From positions 736,001 to 800,000 of the forward strand of contig CAWCKY010000006.1 of the NCBI GenBank assembly GCA_963796275.1: a DNA stretch of 64,000 nt, given 5' to 3'. The notes below the pieces were generated by a model that saw nothing but the letters and a program-made list of their open reading frames with translations, did not search any database and had not been told where the DNA came from. The translations under genes were made by a program, and so were the position numbers. Source of the stretch: an uncultured Acidobacteriota bacterium. Lineage in GTDB: Bacteria; Acidobacteriota; Blastocatellia; RBC074. This document shows, piece by piece, positions 17,912 to 59,440 of the stretch (its first letter is position 1; every line of letters starts with the position of its first letter).

Positions 17912-17995
17912 TGCGGATGAGAGGACTCGAACCTCCACAGAATTGCTTCTATAGCGTCCTGAGCGCTACGCGTCTACCAGTTCCGCCACATCCGC
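17912..17995 (-). tRNA. tRNA-Leu(CAG)
   Basis: GCGGATG/CATCCGC acceptor stem, D-loop GGAACTGGTAGAC, anticodon arm TAGCG-CTCAGGA-CGCTA, long variable arm, GGTTCGAGTCC; CCA not encoded. Confidence 0.96.
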
Positions 17996-45457: not shown

Positions 45458-47890
45458 TCAGTCGCGTCGTAATGCGTCCAACGGATTAATCCTCGTCGCG
45501 CGGCGGGCCGGCAGATAGCAGGCTAGCGCAGCAACGCACGTGAGCAAGACAGCAGTCATCACCAACGTGATCGGATCGGTCGCGCTCACACCATAAAGCA
45601 GGCTTGCCATCAACCGCGTCAATGCAACCGTGACAACCAGCCCGGCGGCAACCCCTGCCAACGCCAGTTTCAGTCCCTGCCGGAGCACCAGATGCAGTAC
45701 GTCTGCGGGCCGCGCGCCGAGCGCCATCCGGATTCCCAGTTCTTGTGTGCGCCGCGTGACCGAGTAGGTCATCAGGCCGTAAAGGCCGGTCATCGCCAGC
45801 AGCAGCGTAATTCCACCCAACAGACCGGCAAACGTGACAATCAGACGCGTCTGCGAGAGAGCTGCTTCGATCTGTCCATTTATCGTGCTGGCTTCGCCGA
45901 TGAACACATTACGATCCACTTCGCGCAGAGCCTGGCGCACCGCGCTCACAGACAGCATCGGGTCATAAGACGTGCGAGCTTGCAGCGTCGCCGAGCTATT
46001 CAGTTGCTGGAAGAGCGGCAGGTAGAAGTAAGGTTTAGGCGTATCGAGCAGGGAGCGGTATTTGATGTCCGGCGCGACTCCGATCACCGTCAACGGCTCT
46101 TTTTCACGCGCCACCTTGATGCGCCGGCCCACCGCATCCTGGTCGGGCCAGAGACGCCGGGCCAGCGTTTGGTTGATGATCACAGTTGGCGGCGCGCCTG
46201 GGACATCCTGGACTCCAAATTCGCGCCCGCCGGTCAGGCGCATGCCGAGCGTGCGGAAATAACCGGGAGATACGAAATCGGGGCTGGCCTGCACTCTATC
46301 CTGCTCGCGCTGCGCCGGGGCGTCTTCAGCCTCGACAGGACGTGGCGAATTTCCCACGATGCTGAGTGGAACATTATGGGTCAGGCTCACCGCTTCGATT
46401 CCAGGCAGGGCGGCTACACGTTCCAGCGCCTGGCGATAGAACGCCAGTGTTTTCACATCGTCATAATCGCGCGGGTCGAGGTCGAGACCGACAAGCAATA
46501 CTTGATCGGGGTTGAATCCGGGATCGATGGCCCGCAATTGCCACAAGCTGCGTACGAGCAATCCCGAGCCGGCGAGCAGCGCCAGCGCCAACGCCACCTG
46601 GGCTACGACCAGCGCACTGCGCAGCCCGGCCCGTTCTGAAGTCTGACCGCGGCCTGTCTCCTTGAGTGCATTGGCTAGACCGATCTTGGCCGACTGCCAG
46701 GCCGGAGCCAAGCCGAAAATGACGCTGGTCAGAATCGTGATCAAAAGCGTGAAGCCGAGCGCGCGGTCATCCAGGCGCGGATCGATCGCCAGTGCGATCT
46801 TGAAGGGTGATTGAAAACTTACCGGCAACCTCATCAGCCAAACGGTAATCAGCAGCCCCGCTCCTGCGCTCAAGAGCGCCAGCAGCAGGCTCTCGGTCAG
46901 CCACTGACGCACTAGTCGCCAGCGTCCGGCGCCGAGCGCCAGCCGAATGCTCGTCTCCTTACGGCGCGCCGCCGCCCGCACCAACAACAGGTTGGCCACG
47001 TTGAAACAGGCTACGCTCAGCGCAAGCGCGGCTATCGTTTCGAGCAGCGCCAGCACGCGCACGACTTCATCACGACGCCCCGGCCAGAATCTGGTCTGCG
47101 CCGTCGGAAAGAGGACCACCGAACGGCCCTCATCGTTTTGCGGGAACGATGCGGCAAGCTGTCCGGCAAGGTTTTTGGTCTCAGCCTCCGCCTGTTCGAT
47201 AGCGACGCCGTTCTTCAGCCGCCCGACTACCATCAGCCAGCGGTTATCGCGTTTGAAAAGCAAATCGGTGCCGCGGAATGCCGTCAGATGATGCGCCAGG
47301 GGAATCCACACCTGAGGCTGTTTCCCCCAGTCGAGCAGAATACTCCTGAAACCTTCCGGAGTTATGCCGACTACCTTGAACTCCTGACCGTTCAAATTGA
47401 CGTTTCGTCCGATCAGCTGGGGGTCGCCACCGAACCGCTCGCGCCACATTCGATGGCTGACGACCGCGACTGCGGCGGCCATCCTGTCGTCATCAGCGGT
47501 CAATAGCCGCCCTGCAGCCGCGCCGACGCCGAGCGTCGTAAAGAAGTCGCCGGTGACCAGCTCCGCGCCGATCTCTTCGGCGTCATCGCCGGCGCGCATC
47601 TTCAAAGGCACGCGACCGTAAGCCGCCAGACCGATGTAGGACTGTAACCGGTCGCGATAGTCAATGTAATCGGGAAAAGAGGTGCCGCCGTAATTGCCCT
47701 TGATAGTCCCATAGATTGATATCAGTCGCTGCGGTTCAGTAACCGGAAGCGGCGGGTAGAGCACCGAGCCGATGATGCTGAAGACGGCAGTGTTCGCGCC
47801 TATTCCCAGCGCAAGTGTGAGCACGGCCACAAAAGTAAAACCGGGGCTCTTCACCAGCATTCGTGCACAATAGCGTAAATCTTGAAGCAT
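45458..47890 (-). CDS. ADOP-type duplicated ABC permease
   Basis: [47 protein letters not shown]. Confidence 0.92.
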   Translation of the reverse strand: MLQDLRYCARMLVKSPGFTFVAVLTLALGIGANTAVFSIIGSVLYPPLPVTEPQRLISIYGTIKGNYGGTSFPDYIDYRDRLQSYIGLAAYGRVPLKMRAGDDAEEIGAELVTGDFFTTLGVGAAAGRLLTADDDRMAAAVAVVSHRMWRERFGGDPQLIGRNVNLNGQEFKVVGITPEGFRSILLDWGKQPQVWIPLAHHLTAFRGTDLLFKRDNRWLMVVGRLKNGVAIEQAEAETKNLAGQLAASFPQNDEGRSVVLFPTAQTRFWPGRRDEVVRVLALLETIAALALSVACFNVANLLLVRAAARRKETSIRLALGAGRWRLVRQWLTESLLLALLSAGAGLLITVWLMRLPVSFQSPFKIALAIDPRLDDRALGFTLLITILTSVIFGLAPAWQSAKIGLANALKETGRGQTSERAGLRSALVVAQVALALALLAGSGLLVRSLWQLRAIDPGFNPDQVLLVGLDLDPRDYDDVKTLAFYRQALERVAALPGIEAVSLTHNVPLSIVGNSPRPVEAEDAPAQREQDRVQASPDFVSPGYFRTLGMRLTGGREFGVQDVPGAPPTVIINQTLARRLWPDQDAVGRRIKVAREKEPLTVIGVAPDIKYRSLLDTPKPYFYLPLFQQLNSSATLQARTSYDPMLSVSAVRQALREVDRNVFIGEASTINGQIEAALSQTRLIVTFAGLLGGITLLLAMTGLYGLMTYSVTRRTQELGIRMALGARPADVLHLVLRQGLKLALAGVAAGLVVTVALTRLMASLLYGVSATDPITLVMTAVLLTCVAALACYLPARRATRINPLDALRRD

Positions 47891-48164: not shown

Positions 48165-50675
48165 TCATTCCTGCCTGAGCGCGACCAGCGGATCAACCCG
48201 AGTCGCTCTACGGGCCGGCAGCCAACCGGAAACCGCCGCTACAGCCAGCAACAACAATGTCACCATGGCTATTGTCAGTGGATCGGTTGCGATCGACACG
48301 TACAACATGCCGGCAATCCAGCGCATCGTCGCAAAGGCTGCCGCCAATCCGATCAGCGAACCGGTCGAGACCAGCAGCATCGATTCACCAAGCACCATCC
48401 GTAGAATCTCAGCGCTTTGCGCGCCGAGCGCCATCCGCACGCCGATCTCGTGCGTGCGCCGCGCGACGGTGTAGGACATCACTCCGTACAGCCCGATGCA
48501 GACCAATGCGAGCGCCAGCAACCCGAAGAAGCTGGACAAAACGGCAAAGAGCCGTTCCTTCGCCAACATGCGCGCGATCATCTCGTTCTGTGTTCCGATA
48601 TTTGAAATCGGCAGGTTGCGATCAATTGACTGCACGGCTTGCCTAATTGCGGCTATTACGGTGCTAGGATCGCTCTCGGTGCGCACAGTGAAACTCATCT
48701 CTTCCGGAGGCCCGGGCTGGTTTTGCAGATAAGGTATGTATACCACCGGTCGGATGGCCCCGCGCAAATCGCCGTACTTTGCATCTCGAGCCACGCCGAT
48801 GATCTGAACCTCCCTCATCTCCAAAATTTTGAGGCGCCGGCCGAGCGGGTTTTGATTGGGGAAGAATCGCTGCGCCAGCGCCTGGCTGACGACAGCCACT
48901 TTAGGTGTTTCCTGGATATCCTGCGGCGTCGATTCACGGCCCGACAGCAAGTGAATCCCCATTGTGGCGAGAAACTCGGGGGCGACCGATGCAAGACCTA
49001 CGGACATATTTTCGCCGGCACGCGGCGTGTAGCCTGGTACCTCGACGCGGGGTGTAGAATGATCGCCGGCCACCAGCGGAGCGCGCGAGGAGCTCACGGC
49101 GCGCACGCCGGGCAGGGCGGCGATGTGTTCGGTAATCTGCCGATACAGATTCGCCAATCGCGCCGTTTCATACCCGCTCGAGCCCGGATGTACACTGAAG
49201 ATCAACAGGTTCTCCCGATCGAAACCCGCGTCAATCTGATTGAGGTTGTGTAGTGTGCGGACAAATTGCCCTGCGCCGGCGAGCAACAAGAGCGACATTG
49301 CCACCTGCGCTACGACCAGAGCTTTGCTCAAACGCGACTGCACAGGGCCACTGCTGCCGGGGTTCTCTTTTAGCATCGGCGTCAGATCAATCCGCGTCGC
49401 ACGCAACGCCGGAACCAGGCCGAAGAGAATGCCGGTCAGCATGGAGACTACGGCGGTGAAACCGAGGACGCGCCAATCCAACCTGAGGTCAACGGCAAAC
49501 TCATTCCAGTTCGCAGTCAGCAGCGCGAGCAGCACATCCTTGCCCCAGTCAGCGAAGAGCAGTCCCAGGGCGCCACCCAAAACAGCCAGCAGCAGGCCTT
49601 CGGTCAGTAATTGCTGGATCAATCGAATGCGACTGGCGCCGACAGAGGCGCGGAGGGCCAGCTCTTTCTGCCGGGTTGCGCCGCGGGCCAGCAGCAGATT
49701 GGCCAGATTGATGCAGGCGATCAGAAGTACCAGCCCGACAATCGCCATCAAAATGGCTAACTGACTGGAAAATACCCCGCGCGCGTACATCAACCCTTGA
49801 CTGCCCGAATCCAGCCTGATCTGAGGAGCAGTGCGTTGCTCACTTGCGGCGGGCAGCTCCAGCACATGTCGTTGCAGAATAGCGGTAAGCTCGGCCTGCG
49901 CCTGCGCAGCGCTCACTCCCGGTTTCAGCCGTCCCATAATGTGCAGCCACCAGTTGGACGCCGAATGCTGTCTCTCAGCGTTGCCCGGCGAAACCTGTGC
50001 GAACAGCGCTATCGGCACGGTTATGTTCGGCGCTGAGCCAACATCGAACGTCCCAAAAAATCCCCTTCGTGTAACGCCGACAATTGTGAAGGCCGTACCG
50101 CTGAGATAGACGACCTTTCCGATTACTGCCGGATCGCTATTAAACCTGCGTTGCCAGTAACGATAGCTGATGACCGCTGCCGGTTCTGTGCTTACTTTGT
50201 CGTCATCGTTTGTTAGAACACGACCCAGCAAAGCGGACACGCCAAGATCGGTAAAGTAGCTCCCGGAAACAGCCTGCCAGTGCACCATCTCCGCCTGCCC
50301 ATTCGCGCGCAGATTCAGTCGCTCCAACGACGCAAATGCGAAGACCGAGGCCAGGGTTTGATTCTGATCGCGGAGCCGTTCAAAAGCTGGATAAGAGATC
50401 GAAGTGCTGGTCTGCAGCCCCGTCGCCTCGTCTTTTTCCATTACACCGTTGAAACCGCGTACAACCCCCTGACCGCCCAACCAGCGGAACAAGACCAGTT
50501 GCCCTGGACGACTGACCGGCAGCTCTTTTAACAGCAACGCATCAACCACGCTGAAGATCGCAGTGTTGGCGCCGATGCCGAGGGCCAGCATCAGTACGGC
50601 GATCAGTGTGAAGCCGGGGTTCTTGCGCATAATTCGAAATGCAAAGCGCAGGTCTTGACGAAATCCACCTAACAT
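48165..50675 (-). CDS. ADOP-type duplicated ABC permease
   Basis: RQDLRFAFRIMRKNPGF, LLIACINLANL, EIGVRMALGA, RRATRVDPLVALR; AGGGG RBS before ATG 50675. Confidence 0.92.
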   Translation of the reverse strand: MLGGFRQDLRFAFRIMRKNPGFTLIAVLMLALGIGANTAIFSVVDALLLKELPVSRPGQLVLFRWLGGQGVVRGFNGVMEKDEATGLQTSTSISYPAFERLRDQNQTLASVFAFASLERLNLRANGQAEMVHWQAVSGSYFTDLGVSALLGRVLTNDDDKVSTEPAAVISYRYWQRRFNSDPAVIGKVVYLSGTAFTIVGVTRRGFFGTFDVGSAPNITVPIALFAQVSPGNAERQHSASNWWLHIMGRLKPGVSAAQAQAELTAILQRHVLELPAASEQRTAPQIRLDSGSQGLMYARGVFSSQLAILMAIVGLVLLIACINLANLLLARGATRQKELALRASVGASRIRLIQQLLTEGLLLAVLGGALGLLFADWGKDVLLALLTANWNEFAVDLRLDWRVLGFTAVVSMLTGILFGLVPALRATRIDLTPMLKENPGSSGPVQSRLSKALVVAQVAMSLLLLAGAGQFVRTLHNLNQIDAGFDRENLLIFSVHPGSSGYETARLANLYRQITEHIAALPGVRAVSSSRAPLVAGDHSTPRVEVPGYTPRAGENMSVGLASVAPEFLATMGIHLLSGRESTPQDIQETPKVAVVSQALAQRFFPNQNPLGRRLKILEMREVQIIGVARDAKYGDLRGAIRPVVYIPYLQNQPGPPEEMSFTVRTESDPSTVIAAIRQAVQSIDRNLPISNIGTQNEMIARMLAKERLFAVLSSFFGLLALALVCIGLYGVMSYTVARRTHEIGVRMALGAQSAEILRMVLGESMLLVSTGSLIGLAAAFATMRWIAGMLYVSIATDPLTIAMVTLLLLAVAAVSGWLPARRATRVDPLVALRQE

Positions 50676-50717
50676 ATTCTTCCCCCTATTTTGCACGTGT
50701 GAGGTATACACCATTTC

Positions 50718-50982: not shown

Positions 50983-51052
50983 AGACGGATTAACAGGATA
51001 TTCTAGATTTACAGCTCTCCCTCAATCCTGATGAATCCTGATAATCCTGTCT
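50983..51052. repeat. Inverted nonamer arrays (CAGGATT / AATCCTG)
   Basis: agacggattaacaggatattctagatt ... aatcctgatgaatcctgataatcctgtct. Confidence 0.7.
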
Positions 51053-51072
51053 ATGTATATCGGAGGAAGACA

Positions 51073-52011
51073 ATGGCAAATTCATCGGCAACGGCCAGCA
51101 CACTGCTGGCTCTCTCGAATGAACTGGCCGACGCCGTCGCGCGGGCCGGCCAGTCGATCGTCGCAGTCAACGCGCGCCCTCGCATTCCGTCTAGCGGAGT
51201 TCACTGGCGGCAGGGTCTCATCGTAACTGCAGAACATACCGTTCAGCGTGATGAAGAGATCACACTCACTCTGCCGGACGGACAGACGGTGAAGCCGGAA
51301 TTGGTGGGCCGTGATTCGAGTACAGATTTGGCTGTGCTCAGACTCCCGAGCGCGAACATTGCCAATCAGCCAGTGGCGGAGGTCGGGGATGCGACTGATC
51401 TGAAGATCGGGCACCTGGCGCTCGCCGTTGCGCGTCCCGGTGAGCGCGGCCTGAGCGCGAGCCTGGGCGTGGTCAGCGCGCTCAGCGGATCCTGGCGCAC
51501 CTGGGGCGGTAGTCGCATCGATCAATTTATTCGTCTCGACCTGTCGATCTATCCCGGTTTCTCGGGAGGAGCGCTGGTAGACGCGCGCGGCCGCGTGGCC
51601 GGCATCATTACCTCGGGTCCGCGTAACTCCGTGATGGCGATCCCCGCCGCGACCGTCAACCGGGTGGTTGAGCAATTGTCGTCGAAGGGGCGCATCACGC
51701 GCGGCTTCCTCGGATTGGGTATGCAACCGGTTCGATTGCCCGATGCGCTCAAACAATCGCTCAATCTCGAAGGGCACGGGGGCGTCATCATTGTGGAGGT
51801 TAAACACGGCGGTCCGGCAGATCGGGCCGGCGCATTAATCGGCGATGTCCTGGTCGAACTCGATGGTCGAGCGATCGGCGAGCCGGGCGACGTGCAGGCT
51901 GCGCTCGATCCGGAGCAGGTGGGGAAGACCGTTAAGGCCAAATTTGTGCGCGCTGGCGCGCGGATCGAGTTATCTATCGTAGTGGGCGAGCGACCGCCCA
52001 GGGAGGAGTAG
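51073..52011 (+). CDS. S1C/HtrA-like trypsin protease with PDZ domain, no signal peptide
   Basis: TAEH, DLAVL, PGFSGG; C-terminal PDZ; GGAGG RBS. Confidence 0.88.
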   Translation: MANSSATASTLLALSNELADAVARAGQSIVAVNARPRIPSSGVHWRQGLIVTAEHTVQRDEEITLTLPDGQTVKPELVGRDSSTDLAVLRLPSANIANQPVAEVGDATDLKIGHLALAVARPGERGLSASLGVVSALSGSWRTWGGSRIDQFIRLDLSIYPGFSGGALVDARGRVAGIITSGPRNSVMAIPAATVNRVVEQLSSKGRITRGFLGLGMQPVRLPDALKQSLNLEGHGGVIIVEVKHGGPADRAGALIGDVLVELDGRAIGEPGDVQAALDPEQVGKTVKAKFVRAGARIELSIVVGERPPREE

Positions 52012-52012
52012 A

Positions 52013-52909
52013 ATGTCTGTGGTGGAATCATTGATCGCAGGGACCAACTCCTTATTCGCCGAAGAGTCCGCAGCTCTGGCCGAGCGATTGCGACGCTCTA
52101 CGGTGCAGGTGAGAGATGGCTATCGTGGAGGCGGCTCGGGCATTATCTGGCGCCCCGACGGTCTCATCGTTACAAACGCCCACGTCGTGCGGGGCCGTGG
52201 CGCGCACGTCGAACTTTCAGATGGCCGAGCGTTCGACTCCGTCGTAGTCGCGCGGGACACAAGGCGCGATCTCGCATCCTTGAAGATTCAAGCTGATAAC
52301 CTGCCTGCGGCGGAGATCGGCAATTCCGATGGCCTGCGCGCAGGCGACCTCGTTTTTGCGATGGGCAACCCACTGGGCATTCCAGGCGCGCTGACGGCTG
52401 GAATTATGCAAGCGCATAGTCTCGTCGATGGCCGCCGCGGGCCCCAATGGATTCAAGCGGATGTGCGAATTGCGCCCGGCAACTCGGGCGGCCCGCTGGC
52501 TGATGCGCGAGGGCGCGTCATCGGCGTCAACAGTATGATCGTCAACGGTCTCGCCCTGGCTGTACCGAGCAATGCGGTCGAGCGGTTCCTGCTACGGCGG
52601 CATGAGAAGGCCTATCTTGGCATCACATTTCAACCTGTCCGTATCCCAGGCCGGGGACAATCGGGTCAGGAGCATAACGGATTGCTGGTTTTAAAAGTCG
52701 AGGCCGACAGTCCGGCGGATGAAGCGGGTTTGATGCTTGGTGATGTTTTACACGGAGCAAATGGCAGGGAGCTGGATGATCCCGCCGATTTGGCCGATGC
52801 GCTGGCTGATGTCACCTCGGATCGGACACTGCGCCTCGTTCTCACGCGCGGCGGCAGACAGGTCCATTGTGATGTAACTGTGCGCGCTATTATGGCGGAG
52901 GCCGCGTGA
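52013..52909 (+). CDS. S1C/HtrA-like trypsin protease with PDZ domain
   Basis: TNAHV, DLA, PGNSGGPL; C-terminal PDZ. Confidence 0.92.
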   Translation: MSVVESLIAGTNSLFAEESAALAERLRRSTVQVRDGYRGGGSGIIWRPDGLIVTNAHVVRGRGAHVELSDGRAFDSVVVARDTRRDLASLKIQADNLPAAEIGNSDGLRAGDLVFAMGNPLGIPGALTAGIMQAHSLVDGRRGPQWIQADVRIAPGNSGGPLADARGRVIGVNSMIVNGLALAVPSNAVERFLLRRHEKAYLGITFQPVRIPGRGQSGQEHNGLLVLKVEADSPADEAGLMLGDVLHGANGRELDDPADLADALADVTSDRTLRLVLTRGGRQVHCDVTVRAIMAEAA

Positions 52910-53550
52910 TTCGTGTCCTGATAGCAGCCAACGCCCTGCTCGTACGAGCCGGGTTGGAGGCGCTGCTCAAAGAGAGCACAGGGTCGGAGGTCGTAGGGAG
53001 TATTCCCTCTGCGCAGCTCGCGCGCCAAATCATTGACCTGAGGCCGGATGTAGTGGTGCTGGAATGGGAGCGTCACGACGAAGGATTCTCGCCATCGTCG
53101 ATAGCTTTGGGGGTTTTCGGCGACGAGCCGCGCAGGCCTGAGTTCGTCCTGCTGACCGATGAATCTCACGCCCCCTGGGTATTTAATGCCTTACGGGCGG
53201 GTGTGCGCGCTGTCCTGCCGCGCGACGCCACGACGGAAGAGCTGGAGGCGGCAATTATTGCGGCCGCTGCCGGTCTTGTAACGATGCATCCGGATACGGC
53301 CGACTCGCTGCTCAACAGCGCGCCCTCTCCCGCGCACACGCTCACAGCCACGCAATCCCTCACGCCGCGGGAGGTCGAGGTGCTGCGAATGCTGGCCGAA
53401 GGCCTGGGCAACAAAGAGATCGCGTTGCAGCTCGGCATTTCCGAACACACGGTCAAATTTCACGTCGGCTCGATCTTCACCAAGCTCGATGCGACGAGCC
53501 GCACAGAAGCGGTGATGACCGGTGTCAGGTTGGGCTTGATTATTCTTTGA
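52906..53550 (+). CDS. NarL/LuxR-type regulator with atypical receiver domain
   Basis: LTPREVEVL..LAEGLGNKEIA..LGISEHTVKFH; receiver lacks the conserved Asp residues. Confidence 0.9.
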   Translation: MIRVLIAANALLVRAGLEALLKESTGSEVVGSIPSAQLARQIIDLRPDVVVLEWERHDEGFSPSSIALGVFGDEPRRPEFVLLTDESHAPWVFNALRAGVRAVLPRDATTEELEAAIIAAAAGLVTMHPDTADSLLNSAPSPAHTLTATQSLTPREVEVLRMLAEGLGNKEIALQLGISEHTVKFHVGSIFTKLDATSRTEAVMTGVRLGLIIL

Positions 53551-53639: not shown

Positions 53640-54512
53640 CTATGTCGAATAGATCGGATTGGACAAGAGAAAACTGATGGCGGCGACGCGAGCCGGATCG
53701 GGCTCTTCATCTGGGATGGCGGCCATTATGGCATCGCATCTGGATTTTATTCCATCGCGGAATTCCGGATGAGTGAAGATATAGAGGTCGTTCCGTAAAA
53801 TGCCTTCCAAAACTCTCTCTCCGACTTTCATCGGATCCATATAGACAGAGGAGACTGAGTGCACCTGGCGCATCTTGTCCGTCTCGGCATACCCCGTGTT
53901 CGAGAGATGAGTCGGACGCGTCAGGCCGCTCTCGGCGATGTTTGTCTGAACGGGGCCCGGGCAAAGGACTGATACGCCGATATTCTCCGCGACCAGTTCC
54001 GTTCGTAACGCCTCCGACAGACCGACGACAGCGAACTTCGCGGTAATATATAAACCAGCCCCGAGTGTCGGAAGGAAGCCGGACATCGACGAGGTGGTGA
54101 CGATGTGTCCGCCCTCGCCATGCGCGAGAATGCGAGGGAGGAAAGTCTGGACGCCGTTGATCACGCCTCCGAGATTGACGTTCATGACCCAGTCCCAATC
54201 GTCGTAAGTCGCGAGCTTCATCGGCCCTCCGAGCCCGATTCCCGCGTTGTTGCACAGCACGTGGACCTTACCGAAGACGCTCTCGGTCTCGTCGGCCGCG
54301 CGATACATCGCCTCGCGGTCAGAGACGTCGAGTTCTATGGCATGAACCGCGCCCGTCCCATTGAACGAAGCCATCGCCTCATCCAGGTGGTCGCGCCGGA
54401 TGTCGGCGATCACTACCTTGATGCCCTCGCGGACGAAGACCCTCGCCATAGCAAGGCCGATGCCGCTGGCCCCGCCGGTAATAAATGCGACTTTGTCTTT
54501 CACGTCTTTCAT
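53640..54512 (-). CDS. SDR family oxidoreductase (LigD/N/O-like clade)
   Basis: TGGASGIG, ADIRRDHLD, NNAG, TYDDWDW, YITAK; GGAG RBS before ATG 54512. Confidence 0.9.
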   Translation of the reverse strand: MKDVKDKVAFITGGASGIGLAMARVFVREGIKVVIADIRRDHLDEAMASFNGTGAVHAIELDVSDREAMYRAADETESVFGKVHVLCNNAGIGLGGPMKLATYDDWDWVMNVNLGGVINGVQTFLPRILAHGEGGHIVTTSSMSGFLPTLGAGLYITAKFAVVGLSEALRTELVAENIGVSVLCPGPVQTNIAESGLTRPTHLSNTGYAETDKMRQVHSVSSVYMDPMKVGERVLEGILRNDLYIFTHPEFRDGIKSRCDAIMAAIPDEEPDPARVAAISFLLSNPIYST

Positions 54513-54556
54513 CGATTTCTCCACTCATATGCCCATATGGTCTTTGAGAATTAAAT

Positions 54557-55185: not shown

Positions 55186-56583
55186 TCAAGCCCATTCTCT
55201 CGATTCCGCTACGCTGCGGCCGTATGGCTTCATGCCGAGCCAGATGACGAGCGTGCCCAGCGGACCCAGTAAGAGACCGGTTAAAGAGAGCGAAAGCCCG
55301 ATTTGACTCTCGGACTGGAAGACATAATCCGTAAAGACCGCCACAATGGTCGGCCCTATTCCGACTCCGATCACGTTGAAGACGAACAGGAAGAGAGCCG
55401 TGATCTGCCCGCGCATCTGATTGGGCGTAATGATTTGAAGCGCGGCATTGAGCGGGGCTGCGGTACACGCCAGCCAAAAGAGGCTGAATGTCGATACGGC
55501 GATGGCCAGATAAGCGTTCGGCATGAACGGGAACATTATCCCAAACGGCAGCGCCACCAGCTTGGCCAGAAAAACTACGCGCAGGTTCGCGTCGTCGCGT
55601 CCAGCTTTGGCGAAGCGCTCGGCGAGTATGCTTCCGAGCAGCGCTCCGATCGGCAAAACGGCGATGATAATCAGTCCCTGGATCAGCCCGTATTCTTTAG
55701 GCGTCCAACCGAAAGTCCGCATGTAAAAGGCGGGAGCCCAACTGGCGCCGCCGATGGACATGACGATTTGAATGCCCATCCCAATGAATATCGGTGCGAA
55801 GGTAGCTCTGTTCTTGCCTAGGAAAGCGAACACGTCTCTGATCGGAATAGGCTTTGTTGAATCATTCGTGTTAGCGCTGATACGCCCTCTCCTCTTAGGC
55901 TCGCGAACCGTAGCCAGCAGAGCGGCCACGATCAGTCCGGGTAGTCCGACGACGACGAACGTCAGTTGCCAGCCACGCATTGTCGCGCCGATCAGAGGGA
56001 GAGTTACCGGAGGCAAGTTTAAAAACATTTGCGTGATAGCGCCGCCGATGATCAGAGCCAGGCCGGTTCCGGCATAGAATCCGAAGTTGAGAAATGCGAT
56101 AGCTCTCGGCAGTTTTTCTCTGGGAAAAAGATCTGCGAGCATCGAATAAGTCGCCGGCCCGCTGCACGCTTCACCAGACCCGACACCAACTCGGCAAATA
56201 AAGAGCTGCCAGAAGCTCTGAGCCAGGCCGCACAACGCGGTCATGAAACTCCAGATCGCGACTCCGATGCCGAGGATGGCTCGCCGGCTCTTATAATCCG
56301 CCATCCTCGCGATGGGAAGACCGAGAATCACGTAGAAGCAGGAGAACGCGAACCCCATCACCAGACTCATCTGGAAATCGCTCAGTCCCAGGTCGCGTTT
56401 GATCGGCTCGACGAGCAGGGAGACGATCCCGCGGTCGAGAAAGTTGATCATGAGCGCGAGGGCGAAAACGAAAACCGCATACCAGGCCCGGGCCGGGCTG
56501 GGCCAGGGTTCGCTCGTTGCGTCTCGCGCAATTCTCTCATCAGCCAAAGAATCGGCGGAGATTTTAGTCGCTTCAGTGCTCAT
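55186..56583 (-). CDS. MFS transporter (spinster-like)
   Basis: NFLDRGI, IKRDLGLSD, ARMADYKSRR, VGSGEA, LADLFP, PNQMRG. Confidence 0.92.
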   Translation of the reverse strand: MSTEATKISADSLADERIARDATSEPWPSPARAWYAVFVFALALMINFLDRGIVSLLVEPIKRDLGLSDFQMSLVMGFAFSCFYVILGLPIARMADYKSRRAILGIGVAIWSFMTALCGLAQSFWQLFICRVGVGSGEACSGPATYSMLADLFPREKLPRAIAFLNFGFYAGTGLALIIGGAITQMFLNLPPVTLPLIGATMRGWQLTFVVVGLPGLIVAALLATVREPKRRGRISANTNDSTKPIPIRDVFAFLGKNRATFAPIFIGMGIQIVMSIGGASWAPAFYMRTFGWTPKEYGLIQGLIIIAVLPIGALLGSILAERFAKAGRDDANLRVVFLAKLVALPFGIMFPFMPNAYLAIAVSTFSLFWLACTAAPLNAALQIITPNQMRGQITALFLFVFNVIGVGIGPTIVAVFTDYVFQSESQIGLSLSLTGLLLGPLGTLVIWLGMKPYGRSVAESREWA

Positions 56584-56623: not shown

Positions 56624-57523
56624 TCATTCCAAGACCAGCTGGCTTGCCCTGGCTTTGGCGTTCATTTGGCGGCGGCCCTCTTCGATCGCCAATCGCCTGG
56701 GATCGGCTTCGCCTTCGGGCAGAGCCGCCAGGATTTCGTCGAAGAGCGCCTTCAACTCTTCCTTGAATTCGGGGTGGGTGAAGATATAGAGGTCATTGCG
56801 TCGGATGCCGCGCAGAACTTTCTCGCCCATCTCTTCTGGCTCCATTCCGAATTGATGTATCTCCGGCAGCCTGGCCATAAACTCCTGATTGGCGGGCCCG
56901 ATGTCGGTGGAGAACTGCGGCGGGCGGATCTTGTCGCTCTCGTATATGGCGGACTTGACAAGCCCCGGACATACCACGGAAACGCCGATGCCATAAGGCA
57001 TCAGGCTCCAGCGCAGCGATTCGCTCAGCCCGCGCACGGCGAACTTCGCGGTCGTATAAACGCCCGCACCGGGCCCGGTGATGAACGAAGCCATCGAGGC
57101 CGTGTTCACGATCTGGCCCCCTTCGCCGTGTTTCTTGATCCGGGGGACGAAGGTCCGGATGCCGTTGATCACTCCGCCGAGATTGACGCCGAGCAACCAG
57201 TCCCAATCTTCATACGTGCATTCATCCATCGGCGCGAAAAAATTGACGCCGGCGTTATTGCAGACTACGTGAACCTTGCCGAACACCCGTTCCGCCTCGT
57301 CCGCCGCGCGATTGAAGGCCGCGCGATCGGTCACGTCCAACCGGATCGGATGCGCGCTTCGGCCCGTCTCACCGAAATGAGCCATCGTGCGATCGAGATG
57401 ATCCTGCCGGATGTCGGCGATAACTACCTTCATGCCGGCGTCATGAAAAACCTTGGCCATACCGAATCCGACGCCGCTGCCGCCGCCGGTGATAAAAGCA
57501 ACTTTTCCCTGTACGTCTTTCAT
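56624..57523 (-). CDS. SDR family oxidoreductase resembling sphingomonad Calpha-dehydrogenases (LigN/LigO/LigD)
   Basis: TGGGSGVG, ADIRQDHLD, NNAGVN, DWDWLLGVNL, NTASMA, YTTAKFAVRGLSESL, CPGLVKS; start MKDV at 57523. Confidence 0.88.
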   Translation of the reverse strand: MKDVQGKVAFITGGGSGVGFGMAKVFHDAGMKVVIADIRQDHLDRTMAHFGETGRSAHPIRLDVTDRAAFNRAADEAERVFGKVHVVCNNAGVNFFAPMDECTYEDWDWLLGVNLGGVINGIRTFVPRIKKHGEGGQIVNTASMASFITGPGAGVYTTAKFAVRGLSESLRWSLMPYGIGVSVVCPGLVKSAIYESDKIRPPQFSTDIGPANQEFMARLPEIHQFGMEPEEMGEKVLRGIRRNDLYIFTHPEFKEELKALFDEILAALPEGEADPRRLAIEEGRRQMNAKARASQLVLE

Positions 57524-57566: not shown

Positions 57567-59354
57567 TTAGAGCGGACACCCGCAGTCTTCATCACTCTCC
57601 TTATTTTCCGGAAGCGGGCAGCCGCAGTCTTCCTCGCTCTCTATTTTTTCGGGTGCAGGGAAGAAGTAATGCCGAACATCGTAGCTCGGACGGATCGCAG
57701 TCTGCGGCCGCCATTTGTCAATGGATGCGGATGTCGTATGAGCGAGATCGGTCGTCAGCCAGAGCGGGTTCGTTTCGCCGCCGACGATGACGACATTGAT
57801 GTTTTCCGGCTCGTTCCATGGCGCGATCAACGTGTCATCCGGGACTTTAGCCCAGGTGGCGTACGGTTCGACTCCCCGCCGCGCGAGCGGAACCATAAGG
57901 TTGCTCACGACATCAGCTTCCCAATATTGTTTCGCGGGTATCTTGACGTTCTCCGAGAGCCACCGGGCCAGAGATTCTTTCGTCTCGAAGCCGTGATTTT
58001 CTTTAAGACCTTTCGCCACCAGCGGGTCCATGACCAGCGTGGCCATTGAACGAAGCGCCTGAAACGCTTTCAGCATAATTGCGGTCTCTTCGTGCGCGCC
58101 GCGGCGGTTGGGGGCGCCCATGGCGTTGATGAAGCTCCAACCTCTGAAGAGACTGACGACGCTCTCTTCGGGGCGGAAGCCCTTTTGGACGTGGAACGAT
58201 CCCCAGACGCTCTTCTCTTCATTCTCGGCGACGCACATATTGTTATAGTTGAGATTGTTCCCCTGTGAACCGAGGAAAGTCTCTCCTACTTTGGTGTTCC
58301 CGAGCGTCAGGGTCATCAAAGTCCAGGCCCTGCCGATCGCCGAATTGGCCAGATTCACTGGACTCAGCGCGCCGACCCCGCAATTCATACCTATTTCATG
58401 CCGGATCGGGCCGTTGACGACCATCATTCTGCCGAATGAAGTCGTCGAACTCGGGATGGCGGGTTCACCGGTCGAGGCGATCGCCAGTAACACCGGAAGA
58501 TGCTCCGGTCTGGCGCCCGCCATTACCGCATTGATGGCGACCTTCTCGACGGTGTATTGCGTCCCCCGCTCTTTCTTGGTCGTGATGGTCATCTCGCCGA
58601 TAACCTCATCGGGAGGATGGCCTGTTCCCGTTAGCATTTCAGCCACTTTCTCTTCCGTGGGAAGAATGATCGGCAGTCCATCCGTCCAGCCGTTCTCATA
58701 AAAGAGGCGGCGAAGATTGTCTTCAGTATCCCGTTCCAACAGTCGCGGCTGTTCTGAGAAGGTCGAACTTAATGAAACCTGTTCAAAATTCTCCTGGGTG
58801 AGCGTGTCGATCACGCGCCGCATAATCGGAACGCCGGACACCGGGTCGTCCCCTTCGACATATCGGCGGAGGGTTGAGATGGGCATTCCCACGAGCGGAT
58901 GCGGAGTGAAGGTGAACGGCAGGACCATCCCGTGTATGCGCTGCTCCTTCGCCAGAAAATCGGCGAACCTCATCGTCGCCATCGGAGCTGTGGGGATTCC
59001 GTAATCTTTTTCCAGTCTTCTGCAGTATTCGGCGACCGCCGAAGAGCAGCCGTCTCAGCCGCCGACGCCGAAGATCACGGCATCGCACCTCCGCTTCAAT
59101 TCAGTCCAAAACTCCGGTTCATCCGTAAACATGTTTCCCGGCTTCCTCATAACTTCGGTCTTCACCGAAGGCATCCGTCTGGAAAACCATCCCTTCATCT
59201 CCTCCAGAAATTCATAAGCCCCGCCAAATCCGACATCCACCAGATAAACAGTTTTGCCTTCGATCTCACCAAGTCGGGGAGCCAATGGGGCCGGCTTTGT
59301 CGTATGAGTCGGCCGGCCCACCGGGTTCAAAACCGTATAAAGTGTTTTGGTCAT
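57567..59354 (-). CDS. UGSC-family selenoprotein (Sec100, UxxC) fused to an uncharacterised domain, 595 aa
   Basis: GAGGAG-ATG 59354; in-frame TGA at 59057-59055 in GVGG-U-DGC; the frame continues into ORF 57567-58982; SECIS hairpin follows. Confidence 0.88.
59020..59049 (-). promoter_or_regulatory. Bacterial SECIS element
   Basis: TTCGGC-GGTC-GCCGAA upper stem-loop begins 11 nt after UGA, loop starts with G; lower stem CTGC/GCAG. Confidence 0.8.
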
Positions 59355-59440
59355 TGAGTTCTCCTCAGCGGCACAGCGCCGTGCGCGTGCAACCAAACAG
59401 GTGATTGCAGCGCGCGGTGCCGATCGCGGTATTGATCGGA

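Follow-up and report, generated by a model that had tools for sequence, protein, structure and literature searches.

An in-frame UGA codon, very probably read as selenocysteine, in a long two-domain protein of the UGSC family from an uncultured Acidobacteriota bacterium

UGSC proteins were recognized as a selenoprotein family in about 2005. UxxC selenoproteins, in which U stands for selenocysteine (Sec), are also found in substrate-specific reductases, where GrdB and PrdB (PF07355) have thioredoxin reductase (TrxR) genes alongside. A bacterial selenocysteine insertion sequence (SECIS) of the E. coli fdhF type is a hairpin directly 3' of the UGA, inside the open reading frame (ORF). Here we analyze a gene at positions 57567-59354 (minus strand) of a 64,000-nucleotide (nt) stretch of DNA from an uncultured Acidobacteriota bacterium (contig CAWCKY010000006.1, positions 736,001 to 800,000), which as a whole is called the window. 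Judging from sequence comparison, the region is very probably one gene for a long two-domain selenoprotein of the UGSC family, in which UGA codon 100 specifies Sec.

A UGSC-containing protein has been seen in Hyphomonas neptunium and in an Olavius symbiont metagenome (PMC1976440). In the Global Ocean Sampling (GOS) survey, UGSC was among the most abundant selenoprotein families with 255 Sec and 21 cysteine (Cys) sequences, and had a UxxC motif and at that time no Pfam or COG domain (PMC2398784). The family is listed in two reviews (PMC9312934, PMC13188914), and the sections of these four sources that deal with it give its function as unknown (PMC1976440, PMC2398784, PMC9312934, PMC13188914). 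UGSC proteins are thus among the most abundant selenoproteins of aquatic metagenomes (PMC2398784), and their function has been unknown for twenty years. Our literature search found no functional study of the family. The window protein is, by its predicted sequence, a Sec-containing long-form member of this already known family. The value of the analysis is that it fixes a systematic annotation error, exposes a conserved domain without a solved fold in the long form, and provides neighbourhood clues to function.

The frame that runs from the ATG at 59354 to the TAA at 57567 is interrupted only once, by the TGA at 59057-59055. When this TGA is translated as Sec, the product is 595 amino acids (aa) long and contains GVGG-U100-D-G-C103. 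A first-pass annotation, made from the letters alone, had joined two called ORFs at this site, one ending in VIFGVGG at the TGA and the other at 57567-58982, and had described 24 open codons between them and a Cys three residues past the UGA. Our translation confirmed the common frame, the U-D-G-C motif and the open codons, which read DGCSSAVAEYCRRLEKDYGIPTAP between the TGA and the ATG at 58982 that gene callers prefer. The N-terminus of the readthrough product, MTKTLYTVLNP, lines up with the starts of the homologues at loci L025 and L033 of the set described below. The region from the TGA to the ATG at 58982 is kept as protein across the homologues, with P121 invariant in it, while the Met at 58982 is not conserved (APITTARF in L031, VPVVTARF in L035). 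From the protein-level conservation of this stretch, which does not extend to the Met, we conclude that the stretch is translated. A promoter and terminator scan found nothing between the two called ORFs.

Homologous loci were collected by scanning the C-terminal ORF against one genome per prokaryotic species, which gave 76 distinct loci, and the N-terminal domain was sought in each by reading 5' of the match in the same frame. The frame is continuous, with TGA or TGC/TGT at the aligned codon, in 74 of the 76. The codon aligned with codon 100 is TGA in 51 loci and TGC or TGT in 23, and could not be placed in the remaining two, one of which is frameshifted (L095) and the other without an in-frame N-terminal domain (L098). 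The loci span Acidobacteriota, Bacillota, Chloroflexota, Actinomycetes, Latescibacterota, and Alpha- and Betaproteobacteria. Positions 100 (U or C) and 103 (C) are both invariant in a full-length alignment of 41 sequences. The Sec forms carry GVGG-U-DGC, GV(A/G)x-U-PGC, GVG(L/H)-U-S(S/T)C or GMGC-U-GSC, and all Cys forms carry GVGH-C-S(T/N)C; natural Cys forms include the homologues of Bradyrhizobium sp. C9 and Aminobacter sp. J41 (L051/L074). The position therefore alternates between Sec and Cys in the homologues, which bears out the selenoprotein interpretation.

The genome itself (9.46 Mb in 7 contigs), which its closest relatives in the homologue searches place probably in class Blastocatellia, was searched for the Sec machinery. 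Genes for selA (559.8 bits), selB (335.9 bits), selD (358.7 bits) and tRNA-Sec (62.6 bits) were all found, each exceeding its curated cut-off, and ARAGORN calls the latter tRNA-SeC with anticodon tca. The selD match (L012, G000:C7:302299-303228, outside the window) holds one in-frame TGA, and the selenophosphate synthetase of this genome is, by its sequence, probably itself a selenoprotein. Elsewhere outside the window (L006 and L021, G000:C6:1279509-1280719), the N-terminal GTPase part of SelB/EF-Tu-type factors is matched by three adjoining fragments, of which one has an in-frame TGA, and a weak tRNA-like match lies about 400 nt off. These fragments may represent a broken translation-factor gene.

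Public sequencing data were also compared with the site. Contigs of relatives (85-99% likeness) from four public runs, three of DNA and one metatranscriptome, span the TGA, and among the 40 listed of 110 differences none falls at 59055-59057, which lends weak support to the TGA. No public sequencing run contains at least half of the sampled words of the window. One 151-nt contig from a soil metatranscriptome (run X15) covers 58918-59068 with 3 differing letters and spans the TGA and both called ORFs; as such a library may contain DNA, this contig is no proof of transcription.

The hairpin UUCGGC-GGUC-GCCGAA (59043-59028) begins 11 nt past the UGA, within the coding sequence (CDS). Its upper stem pairs 59043-59038 with 59033-59028 around the apical loop GGUC at 59037-59034, and a lower stem of 4 bp (CUGC/GCAG) pairs 59049-59046 with 59023-59020; a matching fold is found in the near-identical locus L033. 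Like an SECIS of the E. coli fdhF type, the window element has an apical loop that starts 17 nt past the UGA with G-G. Unlike the fdhF type, its upper stem is shorter, with 6 bp, and the family has two loop types (GGUC, and GUG or GUA triloops) in registers 3 nt apart. The first-pass annotation had described this 6-bp hairpin with its lower stem and had taken it for an SECIS, and both the structure and its interpretation stood up to comparison. When only perfect stems are counted (at least 6 bp, starting 6-18 nt past codon 100), 41 of 52 TGA rows (window included) have one, compared with 2 of 23 Cys rows. Local folding energies have a median of -13.6 kcal/mol in the TGA rows and of -6.6 kcal/mol in the Cys rows. 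The stems are clade-specific and keep their pairing: UUCGGC/GCCGAA, AGCCCGAC/GUCGGGCU, GCCCCAC/GUGGGGU, GCCGGA/UCCGGC, GCAGC/GCUGC and UCGGCGA/UCGCCGA. Covariation was measured on 32 TGA loci, aligned without gaps in the register of the GGUC loop. Both sides have changed in 7 of 9 pairs, and such double changes fill 49 cells, compared with 20.4 on average after shuffling. The covariation score of 0.446 was reached by 0 of 500 shuffles, a count that is no probability since the sequences are related; the control in which registers were slid by 1-3 columns keeps that relatedness and agrees, with scores of at most 0.173. A small hairpin within the CDS is thus the predicted element that directs Sec decoding of UGA 100.

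Collectively, the Sec reading rests on three independent lines, namely the Sec/Cys pairing at the aligned codon, the covarying hairpin specific to TGA loci, and the Sec machinery of the genome. The proposal of a selenoprotein proved correct in every part that is open to computation.

The N-terminal domain belongs to the UGSC family, as the first-pass annotation had suggested, with a PF24696 match of 71.6 bits against a gathering cut-off of 25 that covers model positions 2-157 of 172. The length given there, about 190 aa, was too high, and about 165 aa is the better estimate. PF24696 matches 26 of 26 aligned N-terminal domains, and is single copy in the genome. Like other members of the family, the window protein has U/C-x-x-C at the same column, past a strand that ends in G-x-G, and Sec and Cys forms coexist; its GVGG-U-DG-C aligns with GMGC-U-GS-C and GVGH-C-ST-C at the conserved position of the family. 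Unlike the motif that gave the family its name, the window motif is U-D-G-C and not U-G-S-C.

An AlphaFold2 model of the full-length protein, made with the family alignment, has a mean predicted local distance difference test (pLDDT) of 88.2 and a predicted template modelling score (pTM) of 0.87. In this model the N-terminal domain has five strands alternating with helices, and U100 follows strand 92-98 and opens helix 101-118. In a fold search with the full model (VIA), all 50 matches listed are confined to residues 30-192. These matches are flavodoxin-, CheY-, B12-binding- or Rossmann-like at Z 8-10; two examples, at Z 10.0 and Z 9.8, superpose with root-mean-square deviations (rmsd) of 3.4 and 2.5 over 126 and 113 residues, respectively. 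Such folds are generic and indicate architecture, not function. No thioredoxin-fold chain is among the 50 listed matches, which does not exclude folds outside that list. In the passages concerned, the literature presumes a thioredoxin-like fold for UGSC (PMC2398784), whereas the model of the N-terminal domain is flavodoxin/CheY-like.

The C-terminal domain is the best-conserved part of the protein, with invariant D225, T233, N314, N337, R342, E377 and E379. Its motifs in the window protein are NGWTDGLPI-LPTEE, EKVAINAVMAGA, VVNGPIRHEIGMN, AN-IGRA, AENEE, FHVQKGF and VVGGET, which in the family read NGWTDxLPIxLPTEERV, EKVAxNAVMAGA, VVNGPIRxEIGMN, ANxxIGRA, AENEE, FHVQKGF and VVGGET. The three motifs singled out by the first-pass annotation (GWTDGLPI, EKVAINAVMAGA and AN..IGRA) are present, and the columns they occupy in the family alignment are conserved or invariant. 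Its fusion of a UGSC part to a second domain was right as well, but the extent of roughly 350 aa is corrected to about 360 aa, to which a Cys-rich tail adds about 38 aa. The C-terminal domain matches no family in Pfam or NCBIfam, and a sequence-profile search of the PDB gave nothing meaningful (best E 0.84). Modelled alone, the domain reaches a pLDDT of 89.8 and a pTM of 0.90. Foldseek found no match to this model at E <= 0.001; its best match, a class I fumarate hydratase (E 7e-3, probability 0.30), is not read as homology. VIA-align gave only 1 of 48,161 representative chains at Z >= 5 (Z 5.2 over 90 residues), which we do not take for homology either.

The tail is of low confidence in the model (pLDDT below 50 at residues 558-589). 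Tails with at least two Cys occur in 13 of the 17 UDGC or UPGC sequences of the 41-sequence alignment, compared with 0 of 22 U/C-S-x-C and 0 of 2 UGSC-motif sequences. The consensus of these tails is C-x-D-G-x-C-G-(L/I)-P; the window tail has CGC twice instead.

The two-domain architecture is probably not new but already recorded, because the GOS selenoproteome of 2008 mentions a "UGSC/Unknown_1 fusion" (PMC2398784, section 9 and legend of Figure S1A). As in the window protein, a UGSC selenoprotein is there joined to a conserved domain of unknown function (PMC2398784). Long forms with the literal GMGCUGSC are present in Rhodospirillales metagenome-assembled genomes (MAGs; L096, L099, L100), and these carriers are the kind of aquatic alphaproteobacteria that GOS sampled. 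Because of these literal-UGSC long forms, Unknown_1 is likely the C-terminal domain described here, as far as sequences can tell. A difference is that the paper reports conserved Cys in the fused domains (PMC2398784), while the C-terminal domain proper has no invariant Cys here.

Table 1. Features of the selenoprotein locus and of the surrounding window.
Feature	Position	Strand	Basis or remark
Complete selenoprotein CDS	57567..59354	-	595 codons plus stop TAA 57569-57567; translation with TGA as U open from ATG 59354
Shine-Dalgarno-like GAGGAG	59361..59366	-	6 nt 5' of ATG 59354-59352; read from sequence
UGSC domain, residues 8-164	58863..59333	-	Pfam PF24696; flavodoxin/CheY-like alpha/beta in model
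UGA codon 100, very probably read as Sec (U100 of U-D-G-C)	59055..59057	-	Aligned codons, invariant column, Sec machinery
Cys103 codon, predicted resolving Cys of UxxC centre	59046..59048	-	Invariant column in two family alignments
SECIS-like element	59020..59049	-	Folding, comparative presence, covariation
Conserved C-terminal domain, residues about 196-557	57684..58769	-	Invariant and near-invariant columns; no known family or fold
C-terminal tail, residues 558-595 (about 38 aa)	57570..57683	-	Two CGC motifs, EEDCGCPL...DEDCGCPL
Short-chain dehydrogenase/reductase (SDR) gene, probable operon partner	56624..57523	-	43 nt 3' of selenoprotein stop; adh_short 164.7 bits
Major facilitator superfamily (MFS) transporter	55186..56583	-	3' of SDR gene; Pfam MFS_1 146.7 bits
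Second SDR, same subfamily	53640..54524	-	57% identical to first SDR
LuxR-type regulator	52906-53550		Not obviously linked to selenoprotein
Two adjoining HtrA-like trypsin-PDZ proteases	51031-52011, 52013-52909	+	Not obviously linked
Two large MacB/FtsX-type permease genes	45458-47890, 48165-50714	-	Not obviously linked
tRNA gene	17912-17995	-	Only Rfam match at gathering threshold in window

The features of the locus and its surroundings are listed in Table 1. The closest NCBIfam model of the first SDR is PRK06194 (233 bits, below cut-off), and on the other side a gene for a TonB-dependent-type outer-membrane protein ends 87 nt 5' of the selenoprotein gene. The neighbourhood was compared over 30 of the 76 loci by taking the two nearest ORFs on each side, 113 ORFs in total. 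An SDR neighbour of the same subfamily as the first SDR of the window (40-81% identity) was found in 7 of the 30, in Acidobacteriota, Bacillota, Dehalococcoidales, Chloroflexia and Actinomycetes. Across phyla these SDRs are 36-81% identical over nearly their whole length and form one PRK06194-like subfamily; the first SDR of the window is 66% identical to that of an actinomycete locus. A TrxR-like flavoprotein of about 310 aa is a neighbour in 7 of the 30 loci, mainly in U/C-S-x-C clades; TIGR01292 was run on 3 of these 7 and scores 279-286 bits, below its equivalog cut-off of 343. Less frequent are MFS transporters (4/30) and acyl-CoA-synthetase-type genes (3/30). Neighbouring selD and/or selB genes were seen in 3 of 30 loci; in the proteobacterial loci L055:4530-7163, L075:4228-6159 and L079:4252-5376, the long UGSC gene adjoins selD/selB, recognized by AIRS/AIRS_C and SelB-specific domains.

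These conserved neighbours suggest a redox enzyme, and we tentatively propose a mechanism in which a U/C redox centre serves an enzymatic C-terminal domain. The U100/C103 pair would cycle between selenol/thiol and selenenylsulfide, and might be either where the enzyme carries out its redox chemistry or where electrons enter it. The C-terminal domain would be the substrate-binding or catalytic module and form the substrate pocket. In clades without a Cys tail, the adjacent TrxR-like flavoprotein could supply the reducing equivalents, while in the clade of the window the flexible Cys tail might relay electrons. The PRK06194-like SDRs and the MFS transporter would then handle the same small-molecule substrate. 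Two points count against this mechanism. The TrxR-like and SDR neighbours are each a minority (7/30 and 7/30), with no TrxR-like neighbour in the window, and the C-terminal domain has neither an invariant Cys nor a recognizable cofactor motif.

GrdB and PrdB offer an analogy for the mode of action, as they share the UxxC motif and, with some clades of the family, the nearby TrxR genes. Unlike them, the long UGSC forms have no pyruvoyl-subunit or GrdA-like partner nearby and occur largely in aerobic soil and aquatic lineages. Membership in GrdB/PrdB was rejected, as neither the 26 N-terminal domains (E up to 10) nor the full-length protein (E up to 0.1) match PF07355. A broader view, possible but rather doubtful, is that the long forms constitute a very large and almost wholly mis-annotated family of two-domain selenoenzymes, with a flavodoxin-like Sec domain and a catalytic fold absent from the PDB, which would carry out Sec-dependent reduction of small molecules, coupled to a thioredoxin system or an SDR, by a logic like that of Stickland reductases. 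If so, the flavodoxin-like Sec domain would be a new structural context for the UxxC centre, and, unlike Stickland reductases, the long-form UGSC proteins would be spread through aerobic soil and aquatic phyla. A first biochemistry would find handles in the large conserved domain without a solved fold that many UGSC proteins carry, in the dedicated TrxR-like or SDR genes alongside, and in the Cys-pair tail of one clade.

The main rival to the proposed mechanism accepts a genuine selenoprotein but gives it a general role, as a thiol/selenol antioxidant or a disulfide oxidoreductase similar to peroxiredoxins or thioredoxins, with the C-terminal domain as a scaffold or regulatory part. The relevant passages in the literature do group UGSC with thioredoxin-like redox selenoproteins (PMC2398784, PMC13188914). 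Additionally, TrxR-like neighbours are also typical of peroxidase systems, and short stand-alone UGSC-domain proteins of about 180-212 aa seem to exist. However, the part that would be the scaffold is the most conserved of the protein and holds the many invariant polar residues named above (D225, T233, N314, N337, R342, E377, E379), one specific SDR subfamily and transporters co-occur with the gene, which points to small-molecule metabolism, and the N-terminal domain is modelled as flavodoxin/CheY-like, with no thioredoxin-fold chain among the 50 matches listed. We regard a general antioxidant role as unlikely, though only somewhat less probable than the proposed mechanism.

The annotation of the family in databases shows why the gene has been seen in parts. 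A word-indexed protein database search, in which 8,000 candidates were scored, reached E <= 0.001 for at least 5,734 proteins. Of these, the 120 top matches are all 356-479 aa long and cover 60-79% of the query, i.e., the piece 3' of the TGA; NCBI names 2 of these 120 'UGSC family (seleno)protein' and the other named ones 'hypothetical protein'. When a profile of the N-terminal domain was run against 1.84 billion representatives, 1,788 proteins were found at E <= 0.001 and 680 at E <= 1e-10. Among the best 150 of these representatives, 75 end exactly at the Sec column, cut off there by the gene caller, and 27 read through, 10 of the latter being full-length long forms of at least 500 aa. Several representatives of 160-335 aa look like fragments or frameshifted calls, and a few of about 180-212 aa may, by their sequences, be genuine short UGSC proteins. 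When the word-indexed protein database was queried with the N-terminal region for full-length Cys homologues, 3 C-terminal pieces were all that came back; the full-length Cys forms came from the DNA scan and the representative library. In the ESM Atlas, the C-terminal ORF translated with table 11 has the same family as its nearest clusters, labelled UGSC or hypothetical. The expectation that standard gene callers would split such a gene is thus borne out on both sides of the TGA. To judge from these counts, public databases represent this gene, along with thousands of its homologues, either by two fragments or by a truncated "hypothetical protein". With the records corrected, the selenoproteomes of Acidobacteriota and of several other soil phyla regain a selenoprotein.

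Some observations weigh against a UGSC-family selenoprotein at this locus. The 76 loci share ancestry, so the counts of 51 and 23 at the aligned codon do not represent independent events. With the NCBIfam equivalog NF041046, the protein reaches only 55.6 bits, where the cut-off is 125. The model is also below cut-off for the Cys long form L051 (52.7 bits) and for the literal-UGSC long form L099 (49.5 bits); because even the latter scores so low, we take NF041046 to describe the short UGSC proteins, with the long forms as a separate sister branch by sequence. Taken alone, the window hairpin is no more stable than expected by chance (z = -0.36, equalled by 70 of 200 shuffles), and in one subwindow the minimum free energy belongs to an alternative hairpin. 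Rfam gave no SECIS match, either in the window at gathering thresholds or around the site at E <= 10, where its only match is a snoRNA by chance; bacterial SECIS elements are small, and this null result says little. Since the single-sequence fold does not exceed shuffles and has no Rfam match, the case for the hairpin must be comparative, and even there the simple criterion used finds no perfect 6-bp stem in 11 of the 52 TGA rows.

If the TGA were a true stop, the locus would hold separate genes of 99 and 471 aa, a pseudogene or an assembly error. This is how gene callers annotate it, with an ATG available at 58982, and it would account for the C-terminal pieces among the best 120 matches as well as for a hairpin that is not significant by itself. 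Nevertheless, a true stop is very improbable, as the same codon is TGA in 51 species and Cys in 23 others, the interval from TGA to ATG is conserved as protein while the Met is not, and the Pfam UGSC domain (residues 8-164) spans the TGA. The hairpin moreover covaries, and the contigs of relatives from the four runs have no difference at 59055-59057 among the 40 listed of 110.

Readthrough without Sec, by near-cognate insertion of Trp or Cys or by a reassigned code, has nothing specific in its favour beyond the fact that an open frame with TGA as any residue cannot tell which residue is inserted, and it is hardly credible against a complete Sec machinery, homologues with Cys, the analogue of Sec, at the column, an SECIS-like hairpin that goes with the TGA loci (41/52 versus 2/23 Cys rows), and a genome-wide PF24696 search with only one stop inside a match. 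Reassignment of TGA throughout the genome was ruled out by the Sec machinery together with the Sec/Cys pairing. The window gene is thus best read as a single selenoprotein gene.

Two further observations concern the homologous loci. In six loci from long-read MAGs (L076, L082, L084, L089, L091 and L095), the homologue is broken after about 200-280 codons or frame-shifted, and these breaks look like assembly indels, not biology. In a Bacillota MAG (L039:733-2445), a second copy lies directly 5' of the matched gene and consists of a 141-aa ORF matching PF24696 positions 3-91, followed by a 416-aa ORF without a family; by its sequence this copy looks like a tandem paralogue that is also split at a TGA.

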